The notes under the pieces were generated by a model. The model worked only from the letters and a program-made list of their open reading frames with translations, had not been told where the DNA came from and did not search any database. Of a stretch of 26,180 bases of DNA, positions 21,081-26,180 are shown piece by piece. Positions within the stretch are counted from its first letter, which is position 1; each line of letters opens with the position of its first letter. This DNA comes from a virus. Its lineage: Duplodnaviria; Heunggongvirae; Uroviricota; Caudoviricetes. The stretch covers positions 1 through 26,180 of IMG/VR virus record IMGVR_UViG_2698536580_000004. One strand, written 5' to 3'. The translations under genes were made by a program, and so were the position numbers.

Positions 21081-22658
21081 ATGTCACAGACAGCTATCAC
21101 ACTGGCATTTGAACAGTGGAAGGCGCTGCAGGGTGCCACTGGCGAGCCTGTCCTGCTGGACGAATTTGTTTTTGCGAACGTGCCGGGACTGAATCCAGAA
21201 CAACCCGTTGATCGCAGCGAGACACTGCCACCGGCCGCGCAGATTGTTCACCGGCAGGCAGTCAGCCGTAAAGGTGTGGTGAATGAAAATGCCGTGGTGC
21301 ACTCCGTTGTACTGGGTGCGGATGTGGGCGATTTTTCGTTTAACTGGATCGGCCTGATTAACAAGGCCAGCGGCACGCTGGCGATGATTGTTCATGCGCC
21401 TGTCCAGCAAAAGCTGAAAACTGCAGAAGGGCAGCAGGGGAATGTCCTGACCCGCTCTTTCCTGATGGAATACAACGGCGCACAGACAGAAACCGGCATC
21501 AATACGCCCGCTGAAACCTGGCAGATTGATTTTACTGCGCGTATGGCCGGAATGGATGAGCGCCAGCGCCTGGAAAATATGGATATCTATGGTGCGGCGG
21601 CGTTTTTTGGTAACGGGTATCTGGTAGCCAAAACCGGCAATCAGTTTTTTGTCACGAAAGGCACAGGTTATGTGGCTGGACTTCGTGCGTCACTGGCTGC
21701 GAACCAGAATATTACGGTGACGACAAAGCCGGTAAAAGTCTGGCTGGATGTGTGCTGGACGGGAACGCTGACCAGTGTCTGGAATGTGCAGAGCAAAATC
21801 ACGGTGGCTGCAAATCTTGCTGATTACGTTCAGAACGGGGTTCAGCATTATGTGTTTGCGGTGGCCAGCATTGATGCGGATGGCAACATCACGGATTTAC
21901 GGCCAAAAGGTAGCCTGGGAGAACAGCAGGCCAGCAGCGATTTTTTGCGTAAGGATGCAAACCTTGCTGATGTTAACGACAAAGCGAAAGCCAGAAAAAA
22001 TCTTGAACTGGGTGAACTGGCTGTTTTAAGCATTAGTGATGTTGTACCTGTTGGGGTGCCACTTCCCTGGCCGACAGATATCCCACCGGCGCGTCACGCA
22101 ATCATGCAGGGACAGGCATTTGATACAGTGGCTTGCCCGCAATTGGCTATTGCATACCCATCGGGTGTTCTTCCTGATATGCGCCGCCAGACAATCAAAG
22201 GGAAACCAGATGGCCGCGCAGTATTGTCCTGTGAAGATGATGGCAATAAATCCCATGCTCACACTGCCAGTGCATCCAGTACCGATCTGGGGACGAAATC
22301 GACATCCTCATTCGATTACGGTACCAAAACAGCCAGCACTTTTGATTATGGGACTAAAACGACGAATACAACGGGGGCACACGTACATTCTAGGAATTAT
22401 GGGGGAACTTACGTTGATTCAGGTAATAACACACAAAATCAGGTGCCACGTTGGGGATCTGCGTCTAACTCATCATCAGCCGGAAACCACGCTCACACAG
22501 TAGGAATTGGCGCGCACAATCACACCGTAGGTATCGGCGCTCATGCTCACACTGTAGCAATAGGCGCACACAGTCACACCATTACCGTCGCCGCGTCGGG
22601 TAACGCAGAAACGACCGTTAAGAATATTGCATTTAACTACATAGTGAGACTCGCATAA
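21081..22658 (+). CDS. tail fibre protein with C-terminal His-rich repeat tip
   Basis: 525 aa; GGGAG SD; Gly/Thr/Ser-rich shaft; repeats (S/T)xxFDYGTKT and four tandem 9-aa HxHT(V/I)xIGA repeats near the C-terminus; followed by a Tfa gene. Confidence 0.75.
22488..22595 (+). repeat. four tandem 27-nt repeats encoding HxHT(V/I)xIGA in the tail fibre gene
   Basis: cacgctcacacagtaggaattggcgcg / cacaatcacaccgtaggtatcggcgct / catgctcacactgtagcaataggcgca / cacagtcacaccattaccgtcgccgcg, in frame with the fibre ORF. Confidence 0.8.
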
Positions 22659-23245
22659 TGACTTTTAAAATGAGTGAAACCGATCAAACAGTTACTGTTT
22701 ATAACCTGCGTTCCGATACGAATGAATTTATTGGTGCGGGTGACGCTTTTATTCCTGCACATACCGGACTGCCAGCTAACTGCACCACGATAAAGCCACC
22801 GGCAATCAAAGCGGGATTTGTGGCGATTTTTGATTCAGAGAAGCAAAGATGGATTTCCCGTGAGGATCATCGTGGTGAGGTGGTGTTTTATACGGAAAAC
22901 GGTAATGAGCTGGAGATAACCGAGCCAGGCGCTTACCCGGAAGGGACTACCACGTCAGCACCGGCTAATGCCTGGCAAAAATGGAATGGTAAGGCGTGGG
23001 TGGATGATGCGGAGGCCATGCGAATTGCATTAGTCAGCGAGGCAGACGCCGAAAAGAAAAGACTGCTTAAACAGGCCAATGATGCCATTACCACATTGCA
23101 GGATGCCGTTGATTTAGACATGGCGACCGAAGAAGAAGCACTGCTGCTTACCGCATGGAAAAAATACCGCGTTTTACTGAATCGTATTCAACCGGAAGAT
23201 GCGCCGGAAATTGTGTGGCCGGAGGTGCCTGGAAATGTGGCGTGA
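22658..23245 (+). CDS. tail fibre assembly protein (Tfa)
   Basis: 195 aa; C-terminal LQDAVDLDMATEEEALLLTAWKKYRVLLNRIQPEDAPEIVWPEVP is a typical Tfa C-terminus; start overlaps the fibre stop (TAATG). Confidence 0.8.
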   Translation: MTFKMSETDQTVTVYNLRSDTNEFIGAGDAFIPAHTGLPANCTTIKPPAIKAGFVAIFDSEKQRWISREDHRGEVVFYTENGNELEITEPGAYPEGTTTSAPANAWQKWNGKAWVDDAEAMRIALVSEADAEKKRLLKQANDAITTLQDAVDLDMATEEEALLLTAWKKYRVLLNRIQPEDAPEIVWPEVPGNVA

Positions 23246-23960
23246 AGCACGTCTGGCCTTCACGGATTCTGTTGCTGCGCTGAACTGTTCTATCGTCCCT
23301 GCGCATCCGTGGATTTATGGGCTGGGACAGCAGACAGCGAACGGGGCATATCTCAGCCCGGTTAATGCTGTTCGCTATCTTGCTGAACGCCTGGCCGGAA
23401 CAGGGGGGAATGCGGACATGGTGATTATGATGGTCACCGGACAGACACAGGATAACTTCATGGCAAGCCTGAATAACCTGGTCGGGATTTTCCCCGCCCC
23501 GGCATTCACGCAGGTCAAACGGCTTGCGCAATCCGCCGCAGCGCTGGCTATTGAAAAGATGCAGATCCCTGCGAAAACCGCCGCTGCGTTACCTGCGCCC
23601 ATTCCGTTGTCTGTACCAACCAGCAGGGCAGCTTTATCTGCTGCGGCAATCAGCCAGGCACAAAAGGCGGCGGGTGCCGGGTTTGATATCGAAGGGCTGA
23701 AAAAACAGCTGGGCGAGTTCACGCAGCTGCGTGACCAGCTTATCAGTGATGTGGCCAGCGGACTGAATGATTTACAGGGGAAAAGTGCCAGAGCGTGGGT
23801 TTTTACTGCCAGCGGAGACACCGGCACCACGTTACTGGAACTGATGAAGGACATTCCGCAGCAGTCTGCCGTTTACACCGCTGCCATGATGCTGGTTGGC
23901 GATAATCTTGATGGAATAAAGGGAATGATTCATGACTGCGATCCCGACATTGGCGCTTAA
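23235..23960 (+). CDS. hypothetical Ala-rich protein of unknown function
   Basis: Track frame starts at 23199; ATG at 23235 (MWREARL) has GGAGG 9 nt upstream and overlaps the Tfa 3' end; ~241 aa; no motif recognised. Confidence 0.45.
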   Translation: MWREARLAFTDSVAALNCSIVPAHPWIYGLGQQTANGAYLSPVNAVRYLAERLAGTGGNADMVIMMVTGQTQDNFMASLNNLVGIFPAPAFTQVKRLAQSAAALAIEKMQIPAKTAAALPAPIPLSVPTSRAALSAAAISQAQKAAGAGFDIEGLKKQLGEFTQLRDQLISDVASGLNDLQGKSARAWVFTASGDTGTTLLELMKDIPQQSAVYTAAMMLVGDNLDGIKGMIHDCDPDIGA

Positions 23961-24477
23961 TGGCGAGGCCATCCAGCTGAAAAACATGCGGGTGACTGTT
24001 TCACAGCAGTTTCAGGATAAAGATCAGTCCGGCCAGACCAGCGCCACAACAAAATCAGAGCAGGGAGCAAAGGGAAAGGAACTGCGGATCAGCGGTGAAA
24101 TACCTTTTAAACAGTCTGAAATACTGAAGCGTATTTTTGAGCTGGCCAGTGCTACCGATGCCAGTGGTAATCGTCAGAAGTACCGCGTGGCGCATGAAGT
24201 TGCCCGTGCTGTTAATTTTCGTGAAGCAACGTTCAGCGGGATGCTGGATGCACCCCAGCAGGACGGGAAAATGTCCTGGCTGGTGACATTCACACTGGCG
24301 GAACATATCAGCGTGCAGGAAAAGCGAGAAGCCAGGGCAACAGGTAAGACGACCGCAAAAAAACAGACTGCCGGTAGTGCGGGACAGTCCGGTGGCCAGT
24401 CTGCCGGAGAGGATGAAGAAAAACTGACGTGGTTTGAACGCAAGGTGCTGAAGCCCGTCAATGATGCTTTGGGTTAA
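23932..24477 (+). CDS. hypothetical protein of unknown function (Lys-rich centre, Gly/Ser/Gln-rich C-terminal stretch)
   Basis: 181-aa ORF overlapping the upstream ORF by 29 nt; its stop overlaps the ATG of the hub/spike gene; no motif recognised. Confidence 0.45.
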   Translation: MTAIPTLALNGEAIQLKNMRVTVSQQFQDKDQSGQTSATTKSEQGAKGKELRISGEIPFKQSEILKRIFELASATDASGNRQKYRVAHEVARAVNFREATFSGMLDAPQQDGKMSWLVTFTLAEHISVQEKREARATGKTTAKKQTAGSAGQSGGQSAGEDEEKLTWFERKVLKPVNDALG

Positions 24478-26180
24478 TGATGAAACCAGTAAAACGCCTT
24501 TACCTTTCAACGGATGAAGTTCACCTGGTGGATGCCAGCCTGGTACTGGAGCTGAACAGCTGTGGCCGGGGCTTCATCACCGCAGAGACAACAACCGATT
24601 ACACCGGAAAACTGGTGCGGCTGGATGTGGGGTATACCGATCTGCTTTTGCGGTGGTTTACGGGGTATGTGGAGCGATCGCAGCCCGCTGAAAACGGTTT
24701 TCAGCGTCTGTTCATTCGTGAGCTGGTAGGTGTGTTTGAAAGGATGTGGCCATGTTCGTTTCAACACCCGACTTTGCGTGAAATTGCGGGCTGGCTGGAA
24801 GAAAACAGCGGGATCACGGTCAGTGTGCCTGATGCACAGTACAGCGATACCCCCATCCCACATTTTACCCATAACGGTACTGGTTATCAGTTGCTGAACA
24901 ATCTGGGCAGGGCGTTCAGTATCCTGGATTACATTTGGTACCAGTTGCCTGATGGTTCGCTTTACGTCGGCGGCGCAGAAAAGTCATTGTTTGCCGGTCG
25001 TTCCGTAGAAATCCCGTCAGAGTTCAGCCAGGGGGCTGCTGGCGGTAACTCTGTGACATTACCAGTGATCCAGACTATGCGGCCAGGGGTGGAGATGAAC
25101 GGTGAACGCGTGACTAAAGTTCACCTGACGAATGATACGATGGCGATCACATGGACGCCGAGAAACCGCGCAACGGGTAAACCTTTGCAGAAAACACCGG
25201 CGCAACGGCAGATTGAAAGCCATTACCCGGAACTGGCATCCGGGCTTCATTTGCCAAAGATGGCCAGAGTCGTGGCGCATTCAGAGCCGGTAAAAAGCGG
25301 TAACTTTGCCGATCCCTTCCGGCCACGTTACGCCGTGGACGTGCAGCTGCTTGACGCAGACGGAAATCCGGACAATCAGACGCCTGTTTATTCAGCGGTG
25401 CCGCTGCCGGTACCAATGGCCGGGTATGATTCAGGTATGTTTCAGTTTCCGCCAGAAGGGACGCTGGTTGAGGTTGCATTCACGGGAGGCAGACCGGATA
25501 AACCCTTTATCAGGCAGACGCTGCCGGATGGTACCAGCCTGCCGGACGTTAAACCCGGTGAGCAATTGCAGCAGCAGCGGGAAGAAGTATCCCTGAGGGT
25601 GACTCAGGCGGGTGACTGGGTAAGGCAGACCGATCAGACCATCAGCGAAACATCAATGGTGCGAACCGTGAAAGCCGATACAGAACAGCGCGAACTGGTC
25701 AGCCGTGAAACCACAGTGAAAGCCACGGATAAAACCACGGTACTGGGAACCGCCACACTGCTGGCCGGAGCCATCCAGCAGGTAAGCGCCGGTGATTATA
25801 GCCAGGCGGTGAAAGGTAACAGGCTGGCCAGTATTGAAGGAAACGAAGAAACGGACATAGCAGGACAGCAGTCCACTAAAGTGGGCGGAGCTGTAGCCGT
25901 GGAGGTTGGCGAAAGCCTGACAGAGAAGATTGCCGCACTGCGTAAATCAGTGGCCGCTGGCGGTCAGCAGGTCATGGGGACAACTGTCCATATTGGCAGT
26001 GAGAGTATCAATGCCCTGACCATGATGCTGGACACCATTGATTTGCTGGCAGAACTGGCAAGGCAGTGCGCCAGTCACTCACACCCCAGCGTTGGCACAC
26101 CGACCAATGCGTCATCATTTACTCAGACTGCTACGAAAGCCGGAGAAACCCGGAGCAAGTACCAGAATATTATCGCCTGA
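24477..26180 (+). CDS. baseplate central hub/spike protein (gpV/VgrG-like OB-fold and apex)
   Basis: 567 aa; GMFQFPPEGTLVEVAFTGGRPDKPFI matches the spike OB-fold signature (G..F.P..G.EV.V.F..GD...P.I); C-terminal CASHSHPSVGTPT resembles the HxH..G.T apex motif of gpV-type spikes. Confidence 0.55.
   Translation: MMKPVKRLYLSTDEVHLVDASLVLELNSCGRGFITAETTTDYTGKLVRLDVGYTDLLLRWFTGYVERSQPAENGFQRLFIRELVGVFERMWPCSFQHPTLREIAGWLEENSGITVSVPDAQYSDTPIPHFTHNGTGYQLLNNLGRAFSILDYIWYQLPDGSLYVGGAEKSLFAGRSVEIPSEFSQGAAGGNSVTLPVIQTMRPGVEMNGERVTKVHLTNDTMAITWTPRNRATGKPLQKTPAQRQIESHYPELASGLHLPKMARVVAHSEPVKSGNFADPFRPRYAVDVQLLDADGNPDNQTPVYSAVPLPVPMAGYDSGMFQFPPEGTLVEVAFTGGRPDKPFIRQTLPDGTSLPDVKPGEQLQQQREEVSLRVTQAGDWVRQTDQTISETSMVRTVKADTEQRELVSRETTVKATDKTTVLGTATLLAGAIQQVSAGDYSQAVKGNRLASIEGNEETDIAGQQSTKVGGAVAVEVGESLTEKIAALRKSVAAGGQQVMGTTVHIGSESINALTMMLDTIDLLAELARQCASHSHPSVGTPTNASSFTQTATKAGETRSKYQNIIA

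Follow-up and report, generated by a model that had tools for sequence, protein, structure and literature searches.

Tail fibre gene and its histidine motifs

The window, that is, the whole 26,180-nucleotide stretch of viral DNA that was analysed, is an ESSI-2-like Peduoviridae prophage. Escherichia phage ESSI2_ev239 matches it with 92.6% identity over 89% of window nt 1–25000, and the tail gene order is shared with ev129 and ESSI-2. Around the locus examined here, the local order is baseplate J, an I-like gene, the fibre gene and the Tfa gene. The fibre product was assigned to the PHROG tail fibre families, and exactly the same protein is encoded on NCBI contig CXYI01000055.1. The fibre-plus-Tfa stretch is 88% identical to that of ESSI2_ev129 and 93% identical to those of several E. 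coli prophages, and the fibre reading frame is kept from end to end in many phages. The two genes and the first domain of the fibre are as follows:

21081–22658, + strand: tail fibre gene, 525 aa, taken from the ORF list and its translation (the coordinates take in the stop codon)
21087–21554, + strand: N-terminal baseplate-attachment domain of the fibre, aa 3–158 (Pfam Phage_tail_fib, PF12571, E = 2e-32)
22658–23245, + strand: Tfa tail fibre assembly chaperone, 195 aa (Pfam Caudo_TAP, E = 1.3e-35)

The ATG of tfa overlaps the fibre stop codon by one base (TAATG). The Tfa product is 54% identical to the λ Tfa (orf-194; E = 5e-75) and 26% identical to T4 gp38 (E = 8e-20). Other ORFs overlap the fibre region at 22036–22503 on the + strand, and at 22026–22262 and 22094–22246 on the − strand.

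Downstream of tfa, at 23235–24477, two conserved genes of 241 aa and 181 aa are located, and the same two-gene arrangement is seen in ESSI-2, ev129 and E. coli prophages. The 241-aa product belongs to PHROG 1677 and has no Pfam match, and the 181-aa product is an HP1_ORF34 baseplate-complex protein. They are followed at 24477–26180 (+ strand) by the gene for a 567-aa central spike/baseplate protein, which gave weak Pfam matches to Gp5_C and Phage_base_V and the PHROG label 'baseplate protein'. It carries a single HxH motif (CASHSHPSVG) at aa 534–536, about 30 residues before its C-terminus, which is reminiscent of the iron site at the apex of the P2 gpV-type spike (PMC6116203).

The initial annotation had described four tandem 27-nt units at 22488–22595; they lie in frame and are translated exactly as it had given them, and at 22493–22580 Tandem Repeats Finder detects 3.3 copies of a 27-nt period (73% matches). 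The FDYGTKT repeats that had been placed near 22300–22350 were also found, as two units 10 aa apart. Two points of that description had to be amended. One is that the fibre gene does not end with the repeats: 20 more codons come after the array. Another is that the HxH motifs total six in the fibre, two upstream motifs having been missed. In the following list, the strand names refer to the descending and ascending stem strands delimited in the next section:

22254–22262, + strand: HxH 1, aa 392–394, descending strand
22311–22331, + strand: first FDYGTKT unit, aa 411–417, descending strand
22341–22361, + strand: second FDYGTKT unit, aa 421–427, descending strand
22380–22388, + strand: HxH 2, aa 434–436, descending strand
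22488–22514, + strand: first 27-nt (9-aa) unit, HxH 3 starting at aa 470, ascending strand
22515–22541, + strand: second 27-nt unit, HxH 4 starting at aa 479, ascending strand
22542–22568, + strand: third 27-nt unit, HxH 5 starting at aa 488, ascending strand
22569–22595, + strand: fourth 27-nt unit, HxH 6 starting at aa 497, ascending strand

Together, the four 27-nt units encode 27 residues followed by HSHTITVAA. Twelve of the 17 His residues of the fibre fall in HxH motifs. The six-motif pattern is not due to chance, because no shuffle of the protein among 20,000 gave six or more HxH motifs, the maximum being four.

Homology to T4 gp37 and mosaic structure

In a phmmer search against the PDB, fibre aa 317–525 gave one strong match, namely, to 2xgf_A, the chain of the T4 gp37 tip (E = 9.6e-69), and a pairwise alignment to T4 gp37 over aa 294–525 showed 59% identity. 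The domain limits of the T4 protein were taken from PMC6957217, in which the D10 collar covers residues 811–881 and 1010–1026, the stem 882–931 and 960–1009, and the tip 932–959. Their mapping onto the fibre provided the following parts:

22038–22250, + strand: collar (T4 D10-like), N-terminal part, aa 320–390; T4 gp37 811–881, 46 of 71 residues identical (65%)
22251–22388, + strand: descending stem strand, aa 391–436; T4 882–931, 31 of 46 identical (67%)
22389–22469, + strand: distal tip loop, aa 437–463, hypervariable; T4 932–959, 5 of 27 residues identical (19%)
22470–22604, + strand: ascending stem strand, aa 464–508; T4 960–1009, 64% identical
22605–22655, + strand: C-terminal strand back to the collar, aa 509–525; T4 1010–1026, 15 of 17 identical (88%)

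The functional unit thus delimited, from about 22038 to 22655, is wider than the 22280–22600 first noted. The Pfam Collar domain (PF07484) was detected within it at aa 325–372, with E = 1e-5 and a score of 25.8 against a cut-off of 24. At the other end, the C-terminal stretch (14 residues) includes the last 13 residues of the fibre, which are identical to those of T4 gp37. The HxH motifs at residues 392, 434, 470, 479, 488 and 497 align to T4 residues 883, 929, 966, 980, 989 and 998, respectively. Accordingly placed in the same register, six of the seven HxH iron sites of T4 are present in the fibre; the T4 HxH at 915 is absent, and the second FDYGTKT unit stands in its place.

The two proteins are thus homologous across the collar (D10), the needle (D11) with its stem and tip, and the C-terminus, and several differences are also found between them. 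T4 gp37 has seven HxH motifs, whereas this fibre has six; T4 gp37 has matching 14-residue insertions on both stem strands, which this fibre does not carry; the tip loops are only 19% identical, so that the receptor is presumably different; and the module, which in T4 forms the end of a 1026-aa distal half-fibre, is here carried on a 525-aa Peduoviridae fibre. The initial annotation had likened the fibre end to the T4 tip, with HxH motifs lining a metal-coordinating needle. The core of this reading is upheld by homology (2XGF, E = 1e-68; six of seven sites; a gp38/Tfa-type gene directly following), and direct sequence homology of the region to 2XGF makes it firmer than when first proposed: the support goes beyond analogy. 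Fibre aa 320–525 are therefore very likely to be a gp37/Stf-type receptor-binding module in which an HxH-lined, metal-holding hairpin needle is inserted in the collar. What the sequence comparisons show is the homology, the conservation of the motifs, the mapped domains, the chaperone and the mosaic make-up, whereas the trimeric state, the metal, its geometry and the receptor are inferred.

The mosaic structure is seen when the fibre gene is compared with those of its relatives. The needle block (22251–22610) is 96–100% identical to that of E. coli AP023286. On the other hand, the collar block (21981–22250, about 270 nt) shows only 70–83% DNA identity to both relatives, ev129 and AP023286, while the DNA flanking it is 92–100% identical to one or the other. 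With comparison windows of 90 nt, the breakpoint maps no more than one such window away from the collar/needle boundary, and the needle therefore appears to move as a cassette. A larger exchange is found in Cronobacter phage ESSI-2, which matches only nt 1–846 of the fibre gene: the proteins diverge after DLRPKGSL, the distal part is unrelated, and no HxH motif occurs in the ESSI-2 fibre. Since ESSI-2 shares the N-terminal part of the fibre only, the tip was acquired as a module.

A few residues downstream of this divergence point (about aa 278), a linker precedes the collar. It covers aa 290–311 (21948–22013) and contains a 19-residue motif that weakly resembles a motif repeated three times in the solved short tail fibre 9zd7 (gp92). 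This stretch has the appearance of a widespread fibre joint or recombination linker. At the opposite end of the gene, the segment 22609–22786 (the final 50 nt of the fibre gene and the initial 130 nt of tfa) is 93.8% identical to an Erwinia phage RF1 segment annotated as TfaE, and RF1 has no match elsewhere in the queried fibre-Tfa stretch. The similarity suggests a mosaic unit in which the C-terminal end of the fibre is transferred jointly with the N-terminal domain of Tfa.

The collar also contains three substitutions at near-invariant positions: G338R (22092–22094), Y352C (22134–22136) and G369R (22185–22187). R338 was found in none of 260 homologues, and C352 and R369 each in about 2%. These substitutions could impair the folding of this copy, and they are what speaks for a cryptic prophage whose copy of the fibre is decaying or has lost its function. 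We regard such decay as improbable, however: the fibre ORF and all neighbouring tail genes are intact, as are every HxH motif and the C-terminus, and the divergence of the collar, which extends over about 270 nt at 70–83% identity, looks like an imported divergent allele, not like scattered damage.

A predicted metal-holding needle

For a functional module of the gp37/Stf type, the following architecture can be proposed. Three chains would intertwine into a six-stranded stem, each chain running down from the collar (aa 391–436), turning in the tip loop (437–463), running up again (464–508) and ending in the collar. The trimer axis would carry six levels, and at each of them one buried octahedral ion, most likely Fe(II) by homology with T4, would be bound by six histidines from the HxH motifs of all three chains; these metal sites would hold the six-stranded stem together. 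The His-free FDYGTKT units of the descending strand would face the 9-residue HxH units of the ascending strand. Correct folding of the trimer may be started from the aligned C-termini by the co-translated Tfa.

Several observations on T4 bear on this proposal. The T4 needle holds seven irons along its length, and alanine substitutions of the iron ligands H929 and H931 abolish plaque formation (PMC6957217); the counterparts of these residues in the fibre are H434 and H436. Furthermore, an octahedral Fe site made of six His residues from the HxH motifs of three chains is known from several trimeric fibres and spikes (PMC6116203). Among these, the R-type pyocin fibres and the P2 gpV and phi92 central spikes show the same local chemistry, with an octahedral Fe on the trimer axis (PMC6116203), but they have unrelated folds and no sequence homology to the fibre tip, and each has a single site instead of a ladder of six.

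An AlphaFold2 monomer of aa 317–525, built with a 63-sequence alignment, was of low confidence (pLDDT 60.5, pTM 0.28), as is to be expected for an obligate intertwined trimer. When this low-confidence model was used in a Foldseek search against the PDB, the sole significant match was again 2xgf_A, with a TM-score of 0.32, which is uninformative on the His geometry.

The HxH ladder might hold another metal (Zn, Ni or Co), or none, and be simply part of a β-structured stem; the HxH site of T4 gp12 was indeed crystallised with Zn, possibly derived from refolding in a zinc salt (PMC6116203). We consider this improbable. The closest solved relative, with 59% identity and the same motifs in the same register, has Fe at every HxH site, and Fe is also held by the other native HxH sites known from fibres and spikes (PMC6116203). 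In addition, each of the 12 histidines of the HxH motifs is 99.5–100% conserved across an alignment with 266 homologues, and this near-total conservation argues for a role as ligands.

Paired repeat arrays, the tip loop and the module family

The alignment with the 266 homologues also revealed where the module varies. The mean consensus frequency is 0.36 in the tip loop, as compared with 0.75–0.93 in the other subdomains; the loop of this fibre is the same as in E. coli AP023286 and differs from that of ev129. In T4, the tip (932–959) binds LPS and OmpC (PMC6957217). The tip loop of this fibre (aa 437–463) is presumed to be the surface that contacts the host receptor, which would probably be the LPS core or an outer-membrane protein; relatives use the LPS core or OmpC. 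The end of the module hardly varies: between the last HxH and the C-terminus, the distance is 29 residues in every homologue of the 266 but one (P0148), where it is 28.

The number of repeats follows a strict rule in this family. In all of the 266 homologues, n 10-aa FDYGTKT-type units on one strand are accompanied by n + 1 HxH spacings of 9 residues on the other, and no unpaired intermediate between the two arrays was seen among them. Counted from HxH 1, the next stem HxH follows after 22 + 10n residues, n being the count of FDYGTKT-type units. Optional 14-residue HxH units always occur in pairs, one per strand. The representatives are as follows:

Klebsiella phage GZ7: n = 0, 4 HxH
Salmonella phage SI7: n = 1, 5 HxH
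Fibre of the window: n = 2, 6 HxH
Database homologues: n = 3–5, 7–9 HxH
T4: n = 1 plus the 14-residue HxH pair, 7 HxH
λ Stf and Mosigvirus F31: n = 2 plus the 14-residue pair, 8 HxH

The family spans 4–10 HxH motifs, ten being found in one protein with n = 4 plus the 14-residue pair. Special cases within the 266 are one homologue that has lost an HxH, leaving an 18-residue spacing, and two with an extra HxH inside the first interval. In a hairpin needle, every rung is built from a unit on the descending strand and a unit on the ascending strand; the coupled counts are what such a topology requires, and they support it without recourse to the sequence match.

The initial annotation had regarded the 27-nt repeats as a substrate for repeat-number variation that could change host range. 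This idea turned out to be poorly supported, as seen from the divergence of the units, the constant length and the coupling of the arrays. The units share only 15–22 of 27 nt (56–81%), with exact runs of 6–8 nt. In the eight full-length phage matches, and in the full-length E. coli matches among those listed, the span equals that of the query within 0–3 nt; comparison of the repeat number in related phages and prophages gave six HxH motifs in all three fibres translated (the window, ev129 and AP023286). Slippage-driven phase variation was rejected on the grounds of this low unit identity and the equal length of close relatives. That the array is a contingency locus, at which slippage or unequal recombination often alters the copy number and with it needle length and host range, is thus highly improbable even though the units are tandem and in frame and the 9-aa units vary family-wide from one to six spacings: the copy number shifts only when that of a second array, located about 150 nt upstream, shifts too, two separate arrays changing together would not be explained by slippage in one of them, and the variable part of the module is the tip loop. 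Since the hypervariable part is found there and not in the repeat count, the tip loop between HxH 2 and HxH 3 is the likely determinant of host range.

The gp37/Stf-type stem may be a strictly modular ladder, the length of which is set by coupled units (n = 0 to 5 on one strand and n + 1 on the other) and by the optional 14-residue HxH pair; we put this forward tentatively, at somewhat less than even weight. The route of a rung change is probably the exchange of the whole inserted needle cassette. No statement of the coupling rule was found in the searchable literature, the original structure paper (Bartual 2010) lying outside that search, and the literature search gave no mention of FDYGTK.

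The module itself is widespread. A tblastn search detected it in 631 phage records, among them T4-like phages, λ orf-314 (Stf), 9g, the Salmonella phages SI7 and RE2010, and Klebsiella phage GZ7, and the protein databases contain 1377–1415 clusters with its homologues. The orf-314 part of the Stf of λ (Ur-λ) carries the same tip module with about 54% identity by tblastn, and like the fibre of the window it has two FDYGTKT units and three 9-aa spacings. It differs in that it reaches eight HxH motifs through an extra 14-aa HxH pair, has a longer tip (48-residue spacing) and is the side fibre of a siphovirus.

Magaziner & Salmond 2022 (PMC9659904) described a 'T4- and λ-based RBP family' from more than 200 phages, the members of which diverge mainly in the tip loop and have a gp38-like assembly gene immediately after the fibre gene, and ORF6 of Citrobacter phage ΦNP was shown experimentally to be the receptor-binding protein. 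The family shares the same distal module of about 215 aa, and the fibre of the window fits the description exactly. The ESSI-2-like lineage, which is close to Quadragintavirus, is not among the members named in the sections of the article consulted, and the article does not discuss HxH, iron or sequence repeats. Because the module had already been described there, the present fibre adds a member to a known family.

Both the HxH iron needle and its occurrence in myoviruses, siphoviruses and prophages were already established, and the biology found here adds little to them. Nevertheless, the homology allows the fibre to be annotated with confidence as the probable receptor-binding protein of the prophage, and the identification of its likely specificity determinant (aa 437–463) together with the required chaperone is of use for predicting host range and for engineering by fibre swaps. 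The only element that is new, and modestly so, is the strict pairing of the arrays across the family, from which needle length and the count of metal sites can be read by a simple sequence rule. If the ladder proposal is true, the needle would lengthen or shorten in whole rungs during evolution, its iron content (4 to 10 ions per trimer) changing in the same steps, and its length could be matched to how deep the host surface layers are.
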